63,280 nucleotides of DNA from NCBI GenBank assembly GCA_022822275.1, contig JAJEBZ010000043.1, positions 1 through 63,280 of the forward strand, in the 5' to 3' direction. This document shows, piece after piece, positions 1,704 through 17,304 of this stretch. The translations under genes and the position numbers were made by a program. Below the pieces are notes generated by a model. The model did not search any database, was not told the DNA's origin, and saw only the letters and a program-made list of their open reading frames with translations. This stretch comes from Candidatus Poribacteria bacterium (GTDB lineage Bacteria > Poribacteria > WGA-4E > WGA-3G). Position 1 is the first letter of the stretch, and each line of letters opens with the position of its first letter.

Positions 1704-2270
1704 ATGGAAAAACTACACGAAAACCCGTTTGTTGTCCATGAACTGGAACGTATTCTCAAAGAAGATTATCCATTCTTGGAATATAGTGAGCAGGTGTCTA
1801 AAAAATTGTCAGAAGATTTTTTGGAGCGAGTGAGAAGTGATGAACTATATGTCCGAGTAATACCCAAAATGGAGCGGACAGAACGTAACGGAAGTGTTAT
1901 TGAAGATATAAGTGATAAGTTATCCCAAGTGACACAAATACAGTTTATGTCAACAGTATGCCCTCCAGCACGGTACTACAAAAGCGGTTATGAAAGCTCT
2001 CGGCAAAATGTAGATACTGAGTGGACTGCGTTTCGTTTATACAAAGCAATGATAAACCAAGACCCCAACATTCACCACGGAGCAACAGTATTTATCGGCA
2101 CTCGGGTGCCGATACAGTCGCTAATTCACCATCTAAAAGCAGGAGATAGCCTTGATGACTTTCTTGATGGGTTCACTTCTGTGTCGGAAGATCAGGCAAT
2201 CGCATTTTTAGAGTTCGCGTTGACAACAGCAATTGAAGCATACGCACAACAAGATAGGAAATCAAAGTGA
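1704..2270 (+). CDS. DUF433-domain protein (antitoxin-like) with a ~120 aa N-terminal extension of unknown function
   Basis: C-terminus HHGATVFIGTRVPIQSLIHHLKAGDSLDDFLDGFTSVSEDQAIAFLEFA fits the DUF433/COG2442 pattern. GAGGA ribosome-binding site before the ATG. Confidence 0.7.
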   Translation: MEKLHENPFVVHELERILKEDYPFLEYSEQVSKKLSEDFLERVRSDELYVRVIPKMERTERNGSVIEDISDKLSQVTQIQFMSTVCPPARYYKSGYESSRQNVDTEWTAFRLYKAMINQDPNIHHGATVFIGTRVPIQSLIHHLKAGDSLDDFLDGFTSVSEDQAIAFLEFALTTAIEAYAQQDRKSK

Positions 2271-2271
2271 C

Positions 2272-2406
2272 ATGCGCGTTCTACTTGACGAAAACTTAAA
2301 CTGGCGATTGATCGGAAATATGTACCATCTACGAGATCGGATTCCTCTAAAGATTTACTGGTGGAAAGGGCACGGAAAACCTAAACTTTTACAAGAACTA
2401 AAATAA
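2272..2406 (+). pseudogene. Truncated DUF5615/COG4634-like (PIN-like toxin) remnant, 44 codons
   Basis: ATG lies 1 nt after the DUF433 stop. The product starts MRVLLDENLNWRL, the typical DUF5615 N-terminus, then ends after 44 aa. My recollection is that intact family members are over 100 aa. Confidence 0.45.
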
Positions 2407-2423
2407 TATAGAAGGAGATAATA

Positions 2424-2960
2424 ATGAAATTGCGTTTTTGTGAATCCGAAATACCATACTATGCAAAGCGGTTCCTTGAATATTTTTCTAATTACGAGGC
2501 ACAATTCGAGCTTGAACAAGAATTAACAAATAAAACTCTGGTTGACAAAGTGCAACAACAAGAATATCTTGACCTAAACTTATTGAAAAAGGTTGCATAC
2601 TGGAAGTCGCCAAGGCGTGCTGATCGCATCGATTTAAATAGTGAAAGCGATGTAAAAGAAATTACGCACTACGCATTTACAACCCAAAGCGAACGCGTCA
2701 GATACGGGATATTACAACTTCTGGATGGTGTTAGGTTACCAATAGCCTCTGTGATCCTTCAATTCTATCACAAAGAACCTTATCCAATTATAGATGTCCG
2801 TGCTTTGTGGTCTATTGGGATAGATAAAAAAGGTAATAATTATCCATTCCCATTCTGGCAGAAGTATGTGGCTTTTTGTAGAGACCTTGCCAAAAGAAAC
2901 AACGTTGATATGCGAACCTTGGATAGAGCACTCTGGCAGTATTCAAGAGAAAACCAATAA
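2424..2960 (+). CDS. Hypothetical protein; possible helix-hairpin-helix / OGG-fold-like motif
   Basis: GGAGA ribosome-binding site. LLDGVRLPIASVILQFYHKEPYPIIDVRALW resembles the GV-x-P-x-AS-x-IL..P..YPI-D segment of HhH-type proteins. No catalytic residues could be assigned. Confidence 0.55.
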   Translation: MKLRFCESEIPYYAKRFLEYFSNYEAQFELEQELTNKTLVDKVQQQEYLDLNLLKKVAYWKSPRRADRIDLNSESDVKEITHYAFTTQSERVRYGILQLLDGVRLPIASVILQFYHKEPYPIIDVRALWSIGIDKKGNNYPFPFWQKYVAFCRDLAKRNNVDMRTLDRALWQYSRENQ

Positions 2961-2976
2961 TGAAAGGAAATTCGAC

Positions 2977-3489
2977 ATGACAGATCATAACACTTGGACA
3001 GCAGAGACGTTTCTCTACGATAAATTATTAACGGCACGAGCTCTAACTTCTGGTCGTAGAGGAAGCTCACCTATTGATGTCTATGATAGCTATCGGCAAA
3101 GAGATGTCGACATAGACACCTTATGCAATCTGGGGGCTGACATTATGACTATTGTTGAAGCATCCGGGTTAGAAGGTATTGAACCACACTTTCTGAAATG
3201 GTGCGTTTGGTGGCGTTTAAAAAATCAAAATCTCTTTGGTATACACATTACTTCAACAAAACCCCGATTGATGTTTGAGGGTTTATGGTGGGAATACTTA
3301 AGAGACGTTTGTTCAGAGTATGAGTTCACGCCTTATAGGCAATTTCAAGCAGAAGTCTGTCAACGGGATGTAACAGTGCAAGAGCTTGAGGGTGCTTTTA
3401 TAGACAAATTGTGCGATGTAGTATCTGAACAAGATGTCGATTTGGTTGATCACTTAAATAATCTTACAATCAATTGGGCAAAGCGGTAG
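2977..3489 (+). CDS. Hypothetical protein (170 aa, Trp-rich)
   Basis: An internal ATG at 2977 preceded by GAAAGGAAA avoids the overlap created by the 2866 start. No recognisable motif. Confidence 0.55.
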   Translation: MTDHNTWTAETFLYDKLLTARALTSGRRGSSPIDVYDSYRQRDVDIDTLCNLGADIMTIVEASGLEGIEPHFLKWCVWWRLKNQNLFGIHITSTKPRLMFEGLWWEYLRDVCSEYEFTPYRQFQAEVCQRDVTVQELEGAFIDKLCDVVSEQDVDLVDHLNNLTINWAKR

Positions 3490-3638
3490 CGAAATCCGAG
3501 AAAAGTGTGAGGTAATATAATGCAAGCATTGGCACAGATTGAAAGAAAAACAGAATTACAACTCACCGATGAGGTTAAACTACGTATTGGTATTGCGCGG
3601 TATATCCCTTAGGATCAACGCATAGGAACACAAAACAG

Positions 3639-6572
3639 ATGCAAAATTCTGACCCAGCATTAGAACAACTTATCACGAAAGAAATTGAGGGAGAAGTGCG
3701 CTTTGACGCATACTCAAAAGCACTATACAGCACGGATGCAAGCCTCTACCAAATAGAACCCATCGGTGTTGTTGTTCCCAAACACAAACAAGATGTCATC
3801 AAGACAATCCAGATCGCTGCTGAACACAAAATCCCTATACTGCCTCGCGGTGGCGGAACAAGTCTTGCAGGACAGTGTGTCGGCAAAGCAATTGTCATAG
3901 ACATGTCCAAATACATGAATCAGTTGATTGAAGTAAACGCAGCTGAACACTGGGCGCGCGTTGAACCGGGAATCGTTCTTGACGAATTAAATCATCAACT
4001 CAAACCACATGGACTCATGTATGCTCCCGATGTAGCGACCAGTAGTCGCGCAAACGTCGGCGGTACCATCGGCAATAACTCTGCGGGGTCACACTCTCTC
4101 ATATACGGCAAGACAATTGATCATGTGATGTCGTTAGACCTTGTTCTTGCAAACGGAGATGAAATCACTGCTGCCCCACTATCCTTCCCGGAAGTCGCAG
4201 CCAAAAAGGAAGGTAATACCTTAGAAGCACAAATCTATAGAGAACTCTGCAGAATTTGCGATGAGAATGCAGATGAAATTCGTAAACGTTATCCCCGAAT
4301 TTTACGTAGAGTCGCAGGTTATAACCTTGATGAATATGTCTCGGATGCCGGTTCAAAAGAGGTAACCCCCTACCGTCGTGACGGATGCGATGCCCACCGT
4401 CCTTTCAGTCTCTCGAAAATTGTTGTCGGGTCCGAAGGCACTTTAGCAACCACTGTTGAGGCGAAAGTTAATCTTGTTCCCATTCCCAAAATGACCTGTC
4501 TATGCGTTGTTCATTTTAAGTCGCTCATCGCTGCTATGGAGGCAATGCAACCCATCTTAGACTGCAAGCCAACCGCAGTAGAACTCATTGACAAAACAAT
4601 TCTGGGAATGGCACAAGGCTCTTTGGAATTCTCACGATTAACAAGCTTTATTCAAGGTGAACCGGAAGCACTGTTGGCAGTGGAATTTTACGGAGAAACC
4701 GAAACTGAACTACACGAACAAATTGATCATCTCGAAAAGACCTTGAAAAGAGCTGAATTCGGATATGCGTATGTGCGATGTTTTACTGCAGAAGAAAAAG
4801 CACGTGTCTGGGAAACACGAAAAGCGGGGCTCGGTTTATTGATGGGAATGAAAGGCGATGCAAAACCGATCGGCTTTGTGGAGGATGCTGCTGTCCCTAT
4901 AAAAAACTTACCTGAATACGTCCGCAGATTCGATGAAATCGTCACACGTCATGACACAACCGCCTCTTACTACGCACATGCAAGCGTTGGATTACTACAC
5001 AACAGACCCGTAATCAATCTCAAATCCGAATCAGATATCCAAAAAATGCATAACATCGCACGCGAGGTACGAGACCTACTTATGGACCTAAACGGTGCAA
5101 TGAGTGGAGAACATGGAGATGGACTTGTCCGAAGTGAATGGATTGAAAGCATGTTCGGTCCTAAGATTTACCAAGCACTCCGTGAAGTCAAAAACGCTTT
5201 TGATCCTGACGGAATTATGAACCCAGGCAAAATCATTGATCCCCCACCGATGACAGAAAACCTACGTTTCGGTGCAAAATACAATACCATCAAAATTGAT
5301 ACATACTTTGATTTCTCATCACAAGACGGTTTCGGCAGATCCATTGAAATGTGCAACGGTGTCGGTGCGTGCCGAAAAACATTGACAGGTACCATGTGTC
5401 CCTCCTTCATCGCAACACGCGAAGAGGAACACTCAACACGCGGGCGCGCAAACGCACTACGGCTGGTGATCTCCGGTGCTTTACCCCACACTGACTTAAC
5501 AAGTCAACGTCTATATGATGTCCTTGACTTGTGCCTCGGTTGCAAAGCATGCAAGGCAGAATGTCCCTCTAATGTTGACATGGCGAAAATAAAATACGAA
5601 GTGCTTGCACATTACCGAAAGGCAAACGGACTCCCGCTCCGAAATAGACTTTTTGGTGAAATCGGTTCACTTGCAGTTCTCGGCTCAACATTCGCGCCAG
5701 TCTCCAATTGGGCAACGAACAACCCACTTTCCAAGTGGATAGCAGAAAAACTGATGGGGATCGATCAACGCAGGGATATGCCTACCTTTGTCCATCAAAC
5801 CTTTGAAAAATGGTTCAGTAAACGAAAATCAACGCAAACTTCCGACAAAAAAGTTGTGCTATTTCACGACACCTTTATGAACTATAGTGAACCAGATATC
5901 GGCAAAGCAGCCACACACGTTTTAGAATCCGCAGGTTATGAAGTCATCCTACCAAAGAAAAAATGTTGTGGTAGACCGCTTATCTCTGAAGGTATGCTTG
6001 ACAGAGCGATAGAAAACGCTAACCATAATATTGAACAACTCCAAACTTACGTTGAAGCAGGAATACCAATTGTAGGATGTGAACCGAGTTGCACCTCCGC
6101 TTTGACCGATGATTATGTTGATCTTATTGGAACAGCAAGAGCAAAACGCGTTGCTGAGTCTACATACGCGCTTGAGGAGTTTCTACTTCATGAGCATGAA
6201 AAAGGCGAACTCACACTCACTTATGAAACAGAACCACGCGATATTCTATTGCACGGACACTGCCACCAGCGAGCACTGTCAGGCATCAACCCAGTATTGA
6301 ATATGCTTGAATTACCAAAAGCACACAATGTCACTGTCATCGATTCCAGTTGCTGCGGTATGGCGGGCTCATTCGGTTATGAAAAGTCACACTACGATAT
6401 CTCTATGAATATTGGTGAACTACGACTTTTCCCACACATCCGAGAAAAAACAGGAGAATATACACTGACAGCGTCAGGTTTCTCCTGCAGACATCAAATA
6501 GAACACGGAACCGGTATCTTACCAAAGCACCCAATTGAAGTACTAAGTGAAGCAATTAAAACCAATATATAA
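3639..6572 (+). CDS. FAD-linked oxidase fused to 4Fe-4S/CCG domains (YdiJ / GlcD-GlcF-fusion type 2-hydroxyacid dehydrogenase)
   Basis: N-terminal FAD-binding PCMH pattern (PRGGGTSLAGQ), central FAD-oxidase C domain, ferredoxin-type Cys clusters (CxxCxxCxxxCP, e.g. CLGCKACKAECP) and two C-terminal CCG motifs (KKCCGRP, SCCGMAG). Confidence 0.85.
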   Translation: MQNSDPALEQLITKEIEGEVRFDAYSKALYSTDASLYQIEPIGVVVPKHKQDVIKTIQIAAEHKIPILPRGGGTSLAGQCVGKAIVIDMSKYMNQLIEVNAAEHWARVEPGIVLDELNHQLKPHGLMYAPDVATSSRANVGGTIGNNSAGSHSLIYGKTIDHVMSLDLVLANGDEITAAPLSFPEVAAKKEGNTLEAQIYRELCRICDENADEIRKRYPRILRRVAGYNLDEYVSDAGSKEVTPYRRDGCDAHRPFSLSKIVVGSEGTLATTVEAKVNLVPIPKMTCLCVVHFKSLIAAMEAMQPILDCKPTAVELIDKTILGMAQGSLEFSRLTSFIQGEPEALLAVEFYGETETELHEQIDHLEKTLKRAEFGYAYVRCFTAEEKARVWETRKAGLGLLMGMKGDAKPIGFVEDAAVPIKNLPEYVRRFDEIVTRHDTTASYYAHASVGLLHNRPVINLKSESDIQKMHNIAREVRDLLMDLNGAMSGEHGDGLVRSEWIESMFGPKIYQALREVKNAFDPDGIMNPGKIIDPPPMTENLRFGAKYNTIKIDTYFDFSSQDGFGRSIEMCNGVGACRKTLTGTMCPSFIATREEEHSTRGRANALRLVISGALPHTDLTSQRLYDVLDLCLGCKACKAECPSNVDMAKIKYEVLAHYRKANGLPLRNRLFGEIGSLAVLGSTFAPVSNWATNNPLSKWIAEKLMGIDQRRDMPTFVHQTFEKWFSKRKSTQTSDKKVVLFHDTFMNYSEPDIGKAATHVLESAGYEVILPKKKCCGRPLISEGMLDRAIENANHNIEQLQTYVEAGIPIVGCEPSCTSALTDDYVDLIGTARAKRVAESTYALEEFLLHEHEKGELTLTYETEPRDILLHGHCHQRALSGINPVLNMLELPKAHNVTVIDSSCCGMAGSFGYEKSHYDISMNIGELRLFPHIREKTGEYTLTASGFSCRHQIEHGTGILPKHPIEVLSEAIKTNI

Positions 6573-12637: not shown

Positions 12638-13618
12638 TTATGAACATTGGACAACTTTACCTGTTTGTGCGGATTGGTAGGCGGCAGCTAAGATCGCATT
12701 TGCTTTCAGTCCATCGTTACCACTGGCGATCGGTGCAGTGCCTGTCGCAACACACTCCGCAAAATGCTCAAACTGGTGTTGATATAGGTCTTCATATTGG
12801 GAGGCAATGACCTGCTTCTCCCCATTGAAGTGCGTATGGATTTTCCATCCATCATCGTTCAGGACGGTGACTGCACCTTCTGTGCCGTAGAGTTCCAGCA
12901 CGATGTCACACTGTGCGACAGAAAAACTCATATCCGTAAAGCCTTGTGCGCCATTCTCATAACGCATTAGAATACCACCAGTTTCTTCCACCTGATAGTT
13001 ATGGATATTGCTATCGCAAAATGCCGTGACCTCTGTGACCTCACCGATAAGGTATCGCAACATATCAACGCTATGCGGTCCTAAGTCCATCATACAACCG
13101 CCACCGCCTTTGTCCGGTTGTGCACGCCATTCGTCAGCGGACAATAGGTATTTTTTGAGAAACGGCATCCTGCCATGCACTATCTGTCCAAGCTTGTCCT
13201 CTCTAACCCAGTTTCTAATCTGTTGAAAGCAGGAGTGGAATCGGAACAGGAGGCAGACCTGTAGATGTACATTGTTTACATCACAAGCATCGATCATCCG
13301 TTTGCATTCTTCGGTGTTGAGTGCCATCGGTTTATCGCAGAGGACGTGCAGTCCGCGTTCTGCGGCGGCGATGACCTGCTCACAATGGAGATTGACAGGC
13401 GTTGAGACATAGACTGCATCCAGATCGGCATCGGAGAGTAGGTCGTCAACACTACTGTATGCTTTTGTTGCGTTGTGTTCTGTTGCCAGTTGTTGTGCGC
13501 GTGTTGCGTTTCGTGAGAAGAGTGCGTGGAGTTCTGCTCCTGACGCTTTGTGGATAGCGGGCATTGTTCTACGTTGCGCGACACTGCCTGCACCGAGAAC
13601 GCCCCATTTTAATGTCAT
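12638..13618 (-). CDS. Gfo/Idh/MocA family NAD(P)-dependent oxidoreductase
   Basis: N-terminal Rossmann motif WGVLGAGSVAQRR, and EKP-like CDKPMA. Confidence 0.85.
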   Translation of the reverse strand: MTLKWGVLGAGSVAQRRTMPAIHKASGAELHALFSRNATRAQQLATEHNATKAYSSVDDLLSDADLDAVYVSTPVNLHCEQVIAAAERGLHVLCDKPMALNTEECKRMIDACDVNNVHLQVCLLFRFHSCFQQIRNWVREDKLGQIVHGRMPFLKKYLLSADEWRAQPDKGGGGCMMDLGPHSVDMLRYLIGEVTEVTAFCDSNIHNYQVEETGGILMRYENGAQGFTDMSFSVAQCDIVLELYGTEGAVTVLNDDGWKIHTHFNGEKQVIASQYEDLYQHQFEHFAECVATGTAPIASGNDGLKANAILAAAYQSAQTGKVVQCS

Positions 13619-13650: not shown

Positions 13651-13919
13651 TTAATTTTTCTTGTGTGCCTTTGCCTTTTGTTGCGTTACACGTGTGGCAA
13701 AGTAGTTGCAGGTTCTATACCATCCATCTTTAACATCCTCATTCGTCCAGATGTCCTTAAATTCTGCCCCCTCTGCTGGTGAACCGATAGGTGCTTTCCA
13801 CTGTTTACCCGAATAAAAGGGGGGTCAAGATAGATAAGGTCCACTGTTTGAGAATCTATACCTCGCATAATGTCAAGATTATCCGCTATAAAAAAGGTTC
13901 TGTTTTTAACGTTCATCAC
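13651..13919 (-). pseudogene. Frameshifted and truncated N4/N6 DNA methyltransferase remnant (motif IV region only)
   Basis: MMNVKNRTFFIADNLDIMRGIDSQTVDLIYLDPPF, then a frame change. The adjacent frame continues QWKAPIGSPAEGAEFKDIWTNEDVKDGW, typical of beta-class MTases, and then stops. No motif I region follows. Confidence 0.6.
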
Positions 13920-14017
13920 AGCAACTCCGACATGTATAGATTGTGCAGGCTTTCACATTGCTAATAACATATCATATTCTTCAAATGAAATCAAGGGGAT
14001 TGTGGGGTGTGGAACAA

Positions 14018-14410
14018 GGGTGTGTAAAGTTTTTGCACAGAAGTACAAACTTTTGCTCATTTTTTGTGCTGCTTACAATAGAATTATGTATTCAATTTTG
14101 GGTTGCTCTGATTGTCCATTTCTTACCACGTGGTAAGAAATTTCATACCATGGTAAGATTTGCAAATTGGATTTTAATCCAGTCGTAGTAAGGTCTGAAA
14201 GGTGTTTTTTTCGAAAATACATATTTTTTTCTGAGTTTTTTATTTTTTCTTGAATTTCGTGTGATTTTTTGTTGCGTTTTTATTGTTATATTATACATTA
14301 TTTTAGGGTGAAGAAAATATTTTTTTAGTGTTTGGTTATTGGGATTTCCAATAAGTTTCATGTGTATTTGGATTTATTGAAAAATTCAGTACAACAACTT
14401 TACACACCCC
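14018..14410 (-). repeat. Composite ~390 bp MITE-like element bounded by inverted GGTGTGTAAAGTT motifs
   Basis: GGGTGTGTAAAGTTTTTG at 14018-14035 and its inverse AACTTTACACACCCC at 14397-14410. The interior holds a T/G-rich tract (A/C-rich on the minus strand) and a ~105 bp block shared with 54421-54530. Confidence 0.65.
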
Positions 14411-14464
14411 AAGGGACTGTGGATAGTTGTCTGAATCTCGCATAATCCGCAATTCAGATTTCGG

Positions 14465-14494
14465 TTGACATCAGCTAATCTTGCATGTTATTAT
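14465..14494 (+). promoter_or_regulatory. Predicted sigma70-type promoter of the TPR-UPF0175 gene
   Basis: TTGACA, an 18 nt spacer, then TATTAT, about 35 nt before the start codon. Confidence 0.4.
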
Positions 14495-14528
14495 TACCTT
14501 CAAAAAACTCACGTTGTGCGGGTGAAAA

Positions 14529-15986
14529 GTGATGCTACAACCGAACTCGAATCTTTCTGCTGCCGGCAGCGCATACAACCATATAGGTAAGCCTAACATA
14601 GCACTTGGAGAGTATATAGAGACAGCAACTGGCACTAATGATGAAGCGGATGCGTACAACAAACGTGGTATTGCTTATTGTAAAAACGGTGACTATGACC
14701 GGGGAATCGTACAGTTTAACGAAGCGATCATATTGTCCCCGGAATTTGCCGGAGCCTATCACAATCGGGGACTTGCTTACATCAACAAAAGTGAGTTTAA
14801 TGATGCTATCAGAGACTTCAGTAGGGTGATAGAATTAAAAGAGGACTTTGGTGGGGCAAGATCCCGGGATTTTGAACTTGTTGTCCCTGCTTACATGGGG
14901 CGTGGTTTGGCTTACCATGAATGGGGCAGGTTTCACCGAGCAGTTGATGACTTTAGCAAAGTCCTAAGTCTCACACCGGACGACCCAGCTGCCTACTATA
15001 ACCGCGGGTTGGCTTACCGCAATCTGCAGGTTTTTGAGAAAGCCATCCAAGACTTTAGCAAGGCAATAAGTCTAAAACCCGATGCGGCTGCCTATACCCA
15101 GCGCGGTATAACCTACCACAACAAGGGTGACATAGACAAGGCGATTGAAGACTATAACGCTGCCATAGCGTTGGATGCAGGATTTGCAGAGACTTGGACA
15201 GAACGCGGCAAAGCTTACCGTGATAAAGGCGAGGTAGACAAGGCAATTGAAGATTACAACAAAGCGATCGAACTCAAACCCGAATTTGCTGAGCCCTATA
15301 CCTACCGCGGCACCATCTATACCACACAGGGCAAGATAAACAAGGCGATTGAAGATTACAACAAAGCGATCGCGTGCAACCCAGATTTTGCTGAAGCATA
15401 CCTCAATCGGGGACAGGCTTACTACGTTAAAGGCGAATTGGACAAGGCGATTGAAGATTACGATAAGGCAATACAACTCAATCCAGAACTGGTGGAGGCA
15501 TACACACATCGGGGCAACGCGTATCGTGCCAAAGTTGAGTTAGACAAGGCAGTTGCGGATTATACTGAAGTACTAAAACTCAGACCGAAGGTTGCCGAAT
15601 ACTATTACACACGAGGCGAAGCGTGGCTGCTTGCGAAAGATTGGGAAGAAGCGAAAACCGACTTGACAGTTGCCCTCCTACAAGACGTAGATGTTGCGGA
15701 TGTGTTTCACAGGACCTACGGGAGCATAGATGCCTTTGAACAAAAAATAGGTGAGCGTTTGCCAAAAGAGATTGCGGATCTGTTGACACCACGCAGCGAG
15801 CCGTTTGAAATTGATAAAGAGGCGCGGATAGCATTAGGCATGAAGTATTACGGAGAAGATATACTTAGCAGCGGCCTGGCCTCAAAACTTGCAGGTATCC
15901 CACGCGTGGAATTCATATTTCTGATGGGGGTTTACGGACTCTCACCGTTTGGCGATGAAGAAGAGTACGCCAAGAGCGGATTTTAA
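14529..15986 (+). CDS. TPR-repeat protein with a C-terminal UPF0175 (COG2886) antitoxin-like domain
   Basis: About 10 TPR units (repeated AIEDYNKAI.L.P.FAEAY..RG.AY). Last ~60 aa, ARIALGMKYYGEDILSSGLASKLAGIPRVEFIFLMGVYGLSPF, fit UPF0175. Start is GTG 14529 or ATG 14532. Confidence 0.8.
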   Translation: MMLQPNSNLSAAGSAYNHIGKPNIALGEYIETATGTNDEADAYNKRGIAYCKNGDYDRGIVQFNEAIILSPEFAGAYHNRGLAYINKSEFNDAIRDFSRVIELKEDFGGARSRDFELVVPAYMGRGLAYHEWGRFHRAVDDFSKVLSLTPDDPAAYYNRGLAYRNLQVFEKAIQDFSKAISLKPDAAAYTQRGITYHNKGDIDKAIEDYNAAIALDAGFAETWTERGKAYRDKGEVDKAIEDYNKAIELKPEFAEPYTYRGTIYTTQGKINKAIEDYNKAIACNPDFAEAYLNRGQAYYVKGELDKAIEDYDKAIQLNPELVEAYTHRGNAYRAKVELDKAVADYTEVLKLRPKVAEYYYTRGEAWLLAKDWEEAKTDLTVALLQDVDVADVFHRTYGSIDAFEQKIGERLPKEIADLLTPRSEPFEIDKEARIALGMKYYGEDILSSGLASKLAGIPRVEFIFLMGVYGLSPFGDEEEYAKSGF

Positions 15987-15989
15987 AGA

Positions 15990-16484
15990 ATGCCGATACA
16001 GCCAGTTATTAGCAATACAAGTCCGCTTATTGGACTTTTGGGAATCAATTGCCTTCCGTTATTGCAAGATCTCTACACAGAGGTGTGGATTCCAAGAGAA
16101 GTTGAAGAAGAGTTTTTAGCAGCAGATAAAACATTCTATCAGGAAGTACTCAACAAAGCACCGTGGATTAAAGTTGTAGATGTGACAAATCCCCAAAACG
16201 CTATAATTTATCAAGGTATTATTGACGCTGGAGAAGCCGAAGTTTTAGCACTTGCAGTTGAACATAATGCCCGGCTTGTTATTCTTGATGAAAATAAAGG
16301 GAGACAGAGAGCCACACAAATTGGATTAAAGGTCAAGGGCACATTAGGTGTTTTGTTGGAGGCAAAGGAAGAGGGTTTGATTGTTGCTATCAAACCGCTT
16401 TTAATTCAGTTGCGGGCTAACGGGATACGTCTGAGTGAATCGCTCATCAATAAAGTCTTACAAAAAGCAGGTGAGATAGATTAG
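15990..16484 (+). CDS. DUF3368 (COG2405) PIN-like nuclease, putative toxin
   Basis: ISNTSPLIGLLGINCLPLL..., AGEAEVLALAVEHNARLVILDENKGR, GTLGVLLEAKEEGLI. Starts 3 nt after the upstream stop. Confidence 0.75.
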   Translation: MPIQPVISNTSPLIGLLGINCLPLLQDLYTEVWIPREVEEEFLAADKTFYQEVLNKAPWIKVVDVTNPQNAIIYQGIIDAGEAEVLALAVEHNARLVILDENKGRQRATQIGLKVKGTLGVLLEAKEEGLIVAIKPLLIQLRANGIRLSESLINKVLQKAGEID

Positions 16485-16518
16485 TTGAACTTACTATCAA
16501 AACTATTCAGCGCACCCC

Positions 16519-17304
16519 TTAACTAAACAGTAGTAAATGTATGCCTGTTGCGAATAGGACGATTAACACGATTCTGGAAAAGTCGCTTTCTGAGAAACGA
16601 TTATTCAGGAATACACCGACCTGTACACCGAGTCCAACAAATGGCAGTAGTGCTAAGGCTTCAACGATGATTTCCACCGAGAATAGGCCGAGTTGGAAAT
16701 AAGCGGGAATCTTTGCCAGATTGATGAAGAAGTAGAGTAATGTGGTTGTTGCGACGAATGTGCGGTTACCTAATCTTTGTGGTAGCAGATACATGACGAT
16801 AACCGGTCCAGCCATGTGTGCCAGTGTTGAGAATATGCCAGCGATGCTGCCTAATAAGACCCCGTGCCAGACTTTGAACTGTATTACTGGTGTTTGATCT
16901 GTGGAATCTGGATCGGCGGGTTGCCTTATGCGTGTCCGGACAAATTCTAATACTGCAAATAAACAGGCAATACCTCCAATAATTTTCTTGAGTTGGACAT
17001 CTGATATGTCTTTTAGGATGAAACTCGCTATCGTGATGCCGATGATTGCGCCGGGCACAATACGTCTTATGCTTTGACGATGCCACTGTTTCCAGTAGTG
17101 TCCGAACGAGATAACATCTGTTGAAAAGAGTAAGGGGAGCATGAGTGCGACGACGTTTGTTGCTGGTCGGAATTGTGTGAATAGCGGTACGACTATCATG
17201 CCGACACCGCCCCCGAAACCTGCTTTGCTAACGCCTGTCAACCATGTCCCAAAACAGAGAATTATTATTTCGTAGATAAGGTTTCTCCCGATACTGTTTG
17301 ACAA
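16519..17304 (-). CDS. TauE/SafE (DUF81) family anion exporter
   Basis: About 8 TM segments; GFGGGVGMIVVPLF and a second-half repeat typical of DUF81. Confidence 0.75.
   Translation of the reverse strand: MSNSIGRNLIYEIIILCFGTWLTGVSKAGFGGGVGMIVVPLFTQFRPATNVVALMLPLLFSTDVISFGHYWKQWHRQSIRRIVPGAIIGITIASFILKDISDVQLKKIIGGIACLFAVLEFVRTRIRQPADPDSTDQTPVIQFKVWHGVLLGSIAGIFSTLAHMAGPVIVMYLLPQRLGNRTFVATTTLLYFFINLAKIPAYFQLGLFSVEIIVEALALLPFVGLGVQVGVFLNNRFSESDFSRIVLIVLFATGIHLLLFS

Follow-up and report, generated by a model that had tools for sequence, protein, structure and literature searches.

How does an antitoxin domain that normally makes up a small protein of its own come to stand at the end of a long tetratricopeptide repeat (TPR) array, and what might the array do there? 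The question is raised by two adjacent genes in a stretch of 63,280 nucleotides (nt), hereafter the window, from contig JAJEBZ010000043.1 (positions 1 to 63,280) of a sponge-associated Candidatus Poribacteria genome (GCA_022822275.1), a metagenome-type assembly of 320 contigs. The upstream gene (14529..15986, + strand) encodes a TPR-UPF0175 fusion protein of 485 amino acids (aa) if read from the GTG at 14529, or of 484 aa from a conserved ATG one codon further on (14532; the homolog P0001 begins MLQPNS). Its TAA stop (15984–15986) is followed by the three nucleotides aga and then by the ATG at 15990 of the second gene (15990..16484, same strand), which encodes a DUF3368/COG2405 PIN-domain protein of 164 aa. 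A preliminary description, made from the letters of the DNA, had drawn this anatomy, a UPF0175 antitoxin behind about ten TPRs with a DUF3368 PIN gene starting 3 nt after its stop, and had read it as sensor-type logic, in which release of the toxin would be coupled to recognition of a ligand. The anatomy held, as did the sizes and positions of the open reading frames (ORFs), the number of repeats and the spacing between the genes. As to function, we lean slightly towards explaining the locus as a toxin–antitoxin (TA)-like pair whose TPR-extended antitoxin couples inhibition of the PIN protein to a protein ligand.

The TPR array (14646..15716, residues ~40–396, ~10 repeats) is the variable part of the family, and Pfam recognized 10 stretches of it with TPR_2 and 9 with TPR_1 (E 9.8e-87). 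It is followed by a constant module (15717..15983), composed of a linker (AFEQKIGERLPKEI...) and a full UPF0175 domain. UPF0175 (PF03683/COG2886) matched residues 412–479 (15762–15965), covering profile positions 2–68 of 75 with 40.4 bits (cutoff 27.9); the last 78 aa alone reached 45.2 bits against the same cutoff, and a whole-genome profile scan returned UPF0175 with 44 bits at 15762–15965. The downstream protein matched DUF3368 at residues 115–160 (16332–16469; 57.8 bits, cutoff 27.3), so that both family assignments of the preliminary description scored above their cutoffs in hidden Markov model searches. The same description had placed UPF0175 in the last ~60 aa; the domain was confirmed there (40.4 bits), whereas the length was slightly too low, since the domain takes up ~80 residues. 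NCBIfam had no model for either the PIN protein or the tail.

In an AlphaFold model of the full-length fusion (modeled from the ATG, so that its numbering is one below that of the gene read from GTG; predicted local distance difference test, pLDDT, 86.9), about ten helical hairpins were followed by a small helical module. The model consists of a disordered N-terminus (1–32), a TPR superhelix (helices 25–396, mostly with pLDDT >90) and a C-terminal helical module (399–481), and it contains no globular domain other than TPRs before the tail. Profile matches likewise gave no non-TPR domain in the array of the window, with TPR-S (25.6 bits) just under its cutoff (27.6). In an alignment of 15 fusion tails and 27 stand-alone partners of other phyla, the whole of the stand-alone antitoxins corresponded to the last ~80 residues of the fusion: their first residues (M..L.I.YP.EVL...) mapped onto the fusion at ...KIGERLPKEIADLL..., and the correspondence continued through the GLSPFG motif. 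Since the stand-alone antitoxins align end to end, the fusion represents an N-terminal addition to a complete antitoxin rather than the capture of a fragment. At the other end of the protein, the disordered N-terminal peptide MLQPNSNLSA... (residues 1–33, 14529–14627) is kept in close orthologs at both the protein and the DNA level, and might serve as a degron or for docking.

The preliminary description had also proposed that other TPR-UPF0175 fusions be sought. We collected 80 loci with relatives of the PIN protein, 25 from a Poribacteria clade (L001–L023, L035 and L047) and 55 from other phyla; as L014 runs off the end of its contig, 24 of the Poribacteria-clade loci could be evaluated. A gene encoding TPRs and UPF0175 lay directly upstream of the PIN gene in all 24, across PINs with identities down to 58%. 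At 21 of these loci the upstream ORF is intact (219–1301 aa), with Pfam TPR and C-terminal UPF0175 matches above cutoff in every case (21/21). The apparent lack of a fused partner at L011, L013 and L016 was an artefact of the ORF filter that tblastn overturned, as TPRs and tail were found immediately upstream in each. The recurrence of the same fusion in 24/24 evaluable related loci places it beyond chance; the observation is thus confirmed, and is broader than the single sequence could show.

Among the 55 loci from other phyla, 42 had partners of 72–138 aa with a UPF0175-like end, eight more had a short tail-like match just upstream (tblastn), and five were partial or unclear; no long ORF with a UPF0175-like tail was found upstream of the PIN gene at any of the 55. 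In the genome of the window, four of the five UPF0175 matches lie in frames of ~100 aa. These sizes agree with the statement that UPF0175 proteins are normally small, as they are called in the available text of Makarova 2009 (PMC2701414); the family trait is a single-domain antitoxin of about 80–130 aa, from which the 485-aa protein departs.

An exhaustive search of representative proteins with the 78-aa tail retrieved 65 proteins at E values up to 0.001. TPRs together with UPF0175 were found in 10 of the 20 that were scanned (P0126, P0127, P0131, P0133, P0136, P0137, P0139, P0146, P0150 and P0161), and P0149 likewise shows both. At 90%, fused proteins fall into clusters of as many as 38 members, which lie on separate contigs, and the sole source name attached to them is 'tetratricopeptide (TPR) repeat protein', a generic public name that hides the antitoxin nature of the protein from annotation. 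In P0132 (516 aa), the tail search matched eight separate stretches in which tail residues 33–67 are repeated, and Pfam finds neither UPF0175 nor TPR there; this protein may be a tandem array of helix-turn-helix (HTH)-like units.

The PIN protein (E up to 1e-30) is present in 83 of 176 genomes of the phylum (64 of the 133 high-quality ones) and in 20 of 39 genomes of the genus of the window, with one to three copies per genome. The genome of the window also carries two canonical pairs of a small UPF0175 protein and a DUF3368 PIN, on contigs C42 (~790–1487, − strand) and C306 (~3963–4678, − strand), whose PINs are distant paralogs, one with Asn and the other with Asp at the first catalytic position. 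In a quick IQ-TREE phylogeny of 72 full-length PINs (which excluded 11 loci whose PINs are partial or broken), the 22 PINs encoded beside a fused antitoxin formed one clade (SH-aLRT 100), nested in a group (support 98) with small-partner PINs of Chloroflexota and Acidobacteriota and far from the canonical paralogs of the same genome. The TPR fusion thus arose once in Poribacteria.

Since then the antitoxin has varied widely in length. Fused antitoxins range from 170 to 1301 aa across the family, and what remains in the shortest forms (170–193 aa) is the last TPR/cap together with the linker and UPF0175. On these sequence comparisons the family layout can be described as [TIR]-(TPR)n-constant linker-UPF0175, in which the array varies and the module behind it stays constant. 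TIR domains stand at the N-terminus of P0002, of P0137 (cluster of 30 members) and, in two copies, of L012, the first TIR of which aligns with bacterial NADase TIRs (7uxr and AbTIR 8g83) and keeps the W-x-x-x-E motif, whose Glu we take to be catalytic. The other long forms that were scanned consist of TPRs throughout, and two further long proteins (865 and 883 aa) contain TPRs only; a search of long proteins, itself insensitive, hints that TIR may be the sole extra N-terminal head. At L089 (G013:C35:179500-184500, minus strand, 1707–4979) there are three back-to-back modules, each composed of a short TPR-UPF0175 protein (170, 177 or 193 aa) followed by a PIN of 162–163 aa with Asp in place of the Asn of the window; the modules have the same spacing in G014.

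Length variation is also seen at a single orthologous locus. L001, L002 and L022 are syntenic with the window: all three have the flanking genes for TauE and a GFO/IDH/MocA oxidoreductase, and a methyltransferase-like fragment is present in L001 and L002 as well. Their PINs are 88–92% identical to that of the window, and their antitoxins have 1012, 476 and 306 aa, respectively, versus 485 aa. Selection was estimated from pairwise ratios of nonsynonymous to synonymous substitutions (dN/dS, Nei–Gojobori) between the window and L002 and between the window and L022, two pairs in which the alignment of the repeats is error-prone. With values given in the order L002/L022, dN/dS was 0.36/0.42 for the TPR part (dS 0.78/0.54), 0.27/0.26 for the tail (dS 0.42/0.52), 0.29/0.29 for the PIN (dS 0.18/0.15) and 0.066/0.050 for the GFO flank (dS 1.5/1.7); for the TauE flank it was 0.105 (dS 1.3), from L022 only. 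The TPR array is under purifying but relaxed selection, several-fold less constrained than the housekeeping genes, with no overall positive selection. Being under constraint, the array is therefore functional. Tandem Repeats Finder detected no DNA-level repeat in the TPR region; the TPRs are thus not recent duplicates, and very recent slippage was dropped as an explanation.

Two observations concern the recent history of the module. In the two pairs compared, dS in the PIN (0.15–0.18) was some 10-fold below that of the flanks (1.3–1.7, near saturation) and rose through the tail (0.42–0.52) and the TPR part (0.54–0.78), that is, within 14460–16484 as against the flanks at 12638–13618 and 16519–17304. 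This pattern, together with a near-identical promoter region, suggests that Poribacteria lineages recently exchanged alleles of the module or that it swept between them. In the sponge-metagenome DNA run X2, one contig matches 14475–15537 with 1 mismatch over 1063 nt and another, carrying 48 mismatches, covers 15508–16497. The interval 15508–15537, where several contigs stop or fork, resembles a breakpoint in a strain-level mosaic, close to where the variable array gives way to the constant module.

The downstream protein has a PIN fold. Its model (pLDDT 94.6, predicted template modeling score 0.88) had PIN/VapC structures as all of its top Foldseek matches, including 1y82 from P. furiosus, VapC4 of P. 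horikoshii (5h4g, TM 0.63/0.72) and VapC11 and VapC15 of M. tuberculosis. SSO1118 (2mdt), which the available text of Matelska 2017 (PMC5499597) names as the solved member of COG2405, came at rank 37. In PADLOC, the pair corresponds to PDC-S70, with the PIN model PDLC05073 at E 1.6e-49 and the small-partner model PDLC05076 matching the tail at E 2.7e-5. The pocket is well conserved among 45 family members: E41 in 45/45, E82 in 45/45, E84 in 43/45, D100 in 44/45 and T118 in 33/45. The preliminary description had made toxin function depend on acidic catalytic residues, and E41, E82 and D100 are kept, whereas the first position is Asn instead of Asp. Across the same 45 members this position is N in 30 and D in 15, with D also present in fused relatives of G013, and the available text of PMC5499597 reports that the COG2405 family variably keeps two to five active-site residues. 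Because the other pocket residues are strictly conserved and the first position has flipped repeatedly between D and N, a dead site is argued against, and the PIN protein is likely to have nuclease activity.

Structure prediction of the pair, also proposed in the preliminary description, yielded an interface between tail and PIN. The tail and the PIN protein were modeled together from our own alignments in three runs, along with three controls; the interface score ipSAE was 0.75, 0.75 and 0.74, versus 0.24 for the best control. Of 157 solved complexes, 116 attained that mark, as did 2 of 215 mismatched pairs. The runs had at least 79% of their contacts in common, with a partner pLDDT of at least 73. 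On the PIN side, the confident interface comprises residues 10–11, 41–46, 76–82, 100–106 and 115–120, which make up the predicted catalytic pocket, and on the tail side residues 60–101 (444–485 of the full-length protein). P74-R75-V76 of the tail (full-length 458–460, R75 being R459) contact E41, and S88-P89-F90 contact D100 and T118. The model supports binding, and in it the UPF0175 tail is predicted to cover the catalytic pocket of the PIN protein, in a VapB-like mode of silencing. A sequence search of the PDB gave one chance match for the PIN protein (E 2), none for the tail and no UPF0175-COG2405 complex.

The region upstream of the pair has features that might belong to an autoregulated operon. 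A sigma-70-like promoter (TTGACA-18-TATTAT with an extended TG, 14465..14494, + strand, 11/12 matches) lies 35 nt upstream of the start codon. Promoter-like sites across the region are at chance level (seven found versus 6.6 expected), and the call is based instead on the quality of this site, its position and its near-identity in L001, L002 and L022. An imperfect palindrome abuts the −35 box (14430..14458; 14-nt arms, 1 nt apart, 79% complementary); it is kept in the syntenic loci L001 and L002, where its arms are closer to perfect. Promoter and palindrome are near-identical in the three syntenic relatives. The palindrome is probably an operator for the HTH-like UPF0175 domain, a putative role that we read from its sequence and position.

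The pair lies among genes for ComEC, the GFO/IDH/MocA oxidoreductase, TauE, a peptidase S58 and a glycosyltransferase, and neither the fusion protein nor the PIN protein matches any PHROG. On the − strand, at 13686–13919, a short ORF of 77 aa begins, as judged by eye, like a DNA methyltransferase (…DLIYLDPPF…). The syntenic L001 and L002 have kept it in the form of two overlapping pieces in different frames. It has no Pfam match and may be an old pseudogene remnant beside the module; in the absence of a Pfam match it was not counted as a defense neighbor. Between this fragment and the promoter extends an AT-rich intergenic region of ~550 nt (13900–14460) with long T runs and a GC content of 0.37–0.39, versus ~0.46 in its surroundings.

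DNA of the locus was found in sponge metagenome runs, and small shares of it in coral, marine and viral metagenome runs, from which no conclusion on habitat was drawn. Contigs from RNA libraries of three studies cover relatives of the locus that are 85–95% alike, and two of them (X14 record 5 and X19 record 13) span the 3' end of the antitoxin gene and the PIN gene. These contigs, in which carry-over of DNA is possible, hint at expression and co-transcription of the pair.

How does the locus relate to known systems? Pairs of UPF0175 and COG2405 are common in bacteria and archaea. The available text of Matelska 2017 (PMC5499597) places UPF0175 exclusively beside COG2405 PINs, classed as potential TA toxins, that of Makarova 2009 (PMC2701414) predicts COG2886/UPF0175 to be an HTH antitoxin, and that of PMC12988326 counts PDC-S70 among the more prevalent candidate defense systems. 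The pair described here shares with UPF0175-COG2405/PDC-S70 both protein families, the antitoxin-first order, the tight abutment of the genes and an end-to-end alignment of the tail, but its antitoxins have 170–1301 aa with a TPR array and, in some, TIR, whereas theirs have about 80–130 aa. In their available parts, these three sources describe small single-domain partners or HTH-DUF955 three-component variants only, with no TPR fusion; no TPR-PIN pair is described in PMC7159879. Our literature search, conducted mostly on abstracts and with most subscription journals and supplements outside its scope, found no TPR-fused UPF0175 antitoxin and no description of a Poribacteria TA system. What is known is therefore the UPF0175-COG2405 family, and what is new is a phylum-wide monophyletic branch of it with a modular TPR-extended antitoxin.

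The likeness to VapBC lies in the PIN-fold toxin, the predicted occlusion of the pocket with an antitoxin Arg on the catalytic Glu, and the promoter-proximal palindrome; unlike VapBC, the antitoxin is of the UPF0175 HTH-like kind rather than AbrB, RHH or Phd, the first Asp is replaced by Asn, and VapB has no TPR extension. The nearest architectural analog is the TPR-GreA/B-C-PIN conflict system, which the available text of Kaur et al. 2021 (PMC8195603) describes as one polypeptide with a variable N-terminal effector that may be TIR. The order is parallel, with an effector (TIR), TPRs, a small adaptor domain and PIN, but the conflict system carries GreA/B-C within its single polypeptide, whereas here there are two genes and UPF0175 takes that position. 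The PIN protein of the window scored 15.4 bits against PF20698 (cutoff 27.8), and there was no GreA/B-C match in the fusion or the PIN among the best 25 of 50 Pfam families; we regard the relation as that of an analog, not of a member. Avs/STAND NTPases are immune proteins with TPR sensors. In CapRel SJ46, according to the available text of 10.1101/2023.12.08.570793, one domain restrains the effector and recognizes an invader protein. With CapRel and Avs the pair would share the logic of restraining and recognizing, as a conceptual parallel only: there is no NTPase switch here, and toxin and sensor would be separate proteins.

These data lead us to the following proposal. The locus would be a two-gene type II TA-like operon of the UPF0175-COG2405 (DUF3368) kind. 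The downstream gene would encode the presumed toxin, a PIN protein of the VapC type that most likely acts as an RNase dependent on Mg. The upstream gene would encode its inhibitor, the C-terminal UPF0175 HTH-like domain of which is predicted to bind the PIN protein and cover its acidic pocket, and probably also to bind the promoter palindrome, leading to autoregulation of the operon. In Poribacteria, the antitoxin would have gained an N-terminal TPR superhelix once, and the array would then have grown and shrunk (from 1–3 to >25 repeats), sometimes acquiring TIR heads. The TPR array would bind a protein ligand, and inhibition by the antitoxin or its stability, and hence the activity of the PIN protein, would depend on that ligand. 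Occlusion of a VapC-like RNase by the tail, with the array coupling this inhibition to a protein partner, appears from the models to be the most likely mechanism. The sensor-type logic suggested in the preliminary description is plausible. Pointing towards it are the phylum-wide fusion, the range of 306–1012 aa at one locus, a TPR part that evolves faster than the tail and the PIN, the N-terminal TIR of some members and the predicted cover of the tail over the PIN active site.

Several points weigh against a ligand-sensing TA pair. At the first canonical acidic position the PIN protein has Asn (N9), as do all of its 19 closest homologs, and a PIN with Asn at this position may be weak or inactive. 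Mutation of the first PIN Asp is used to inactivate VapC, and the D7N mutant of Shigella VapC has a PDB entry (5ed0, among the Foldseek matches). The score of the complex is the model's own confidence, obtained from our own alignments. dN/dS in the TPR part stays under 1, and slippage or recombination can lengthen or shorten a repeat array even when its length is not selected. There is no defense island around the pair, its neighbors being housekeeping genes. The PIN is partial in L016, L035 and L047 and carries in-frame stops in G102, G132, G139 and G110, with the upstream TPR-UPF0175 gene still present beside these broken PINs; this could reflect decay of the toxin gene or assembly error. 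In their available text, PMC5499597, PMC2701414 and PMC12988326 hold no experimental data on any UPF0175-COG2405 member, and PDC-S70 is presented as an unvalidated candidate in that of PMC12988326, PDCs in general being candidates (10.1101/2024.01.29.577857).

Alternatively, the locus could be an ordinary addiction-type TA pair in which the array is lineage-specific baggage, fused once and drifting in length by recombination, and at most stabilizes or oligomerizes the antitoxin. Poribacteria are rich in TPR proteins. A single origin of the fusion confined to one phylum, a TPR dN/dS below 1, the lack of a defense island, an array that holds no non-TPR domain in the window (with TPR-S just under cutoff) and the two canonical small pairs in the same genome are all in keeping with this explanation. 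The fusion has nevertheless persisted in 24/24 evaluable loci with PINs down to 58% identity, its ORFs are intact up to 1301 aa, a dN/dS of 0.36–0.42 means that the array is still constrained, the last TPR and the linker are kept in every member, the 170-aa forms included, and TIR domains have been added repeatedly at the N-terminus. We consider mere baggage rather unlikely. The pair might instead involve no toxin at all, the PIN protein being either a housekeeping RNase that is regulated or targeted, or an RNA-binding protein without catalytic activity, and the TPR-UPF0175 protein an adaptor to a substrate complex. TPR-like domains accompany PIN domains in the eukaryotic SMG5/SMG6, and L007 matches the Est1/SMG-type EST1_DNA_bind (29.1 bits, cutoff 22), in overlap with generic TPR matches; the Asn at the first catalytic position throughout the clade and the housekeeping neighbors would fit as well. 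But the patchy presence (20/39 in the genus), the one to three copies, the tandem modules and the decayed copies are traits of accessory TA or defense genes, the predicted position of the tail closes the catalytic pocket instead of leaving it open, and the nearest relatives are canonical two-gene TA-like pairs; we regard an adaptor as distinctly improbable. That the long ORF is an artefact of assembly or gene calling, joining a TPR gene to a small antitoxin gene, is effectively refuted: 21 genomes from independent assemblies, including several single-contig chromosomes, show the uninterrupted architecture, clusters of fused proteins reach 38 members from separate contigs, and the TPR part recurs in an independent DNA run, where 1063 nt match with 1 mismatch.

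The ligand-coupled TA pair, which we continue to prefer, can be extended to a minimal pattern-recognition module, in which the fast-evolving TPR array, sometimes with an NADase-type TIR head, would recognize a phage or other foreign protein. The ligand would then pull UPF0175 off the PIN protein, or expose UPF0175 to proteolysis, leading to RNA cleavage and abortive infection. This defensive role is suggested by the architecture and the evolutionary pattern, and we view it as doubtful. If true, it would amount to NLR/Avs-like sensing without an NTPase switch, and would provide the first trigger mechanism for the widespread PDC-S70/UPF0175-COG2405 family.

The phylum-wide branch represents a natural experiment on the wiring of a TA module to an input. 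Related orthologs with antitoxins of 306, 476, 485 and 1012 aa and nearly identical PINs are ready-made constructs for examining the role of the array. The family is a concrete case in the debate on chromosomal TA pairs as sensors in immunity, and it bears on the role of the abundant TPR proteins in sponge symbionts.

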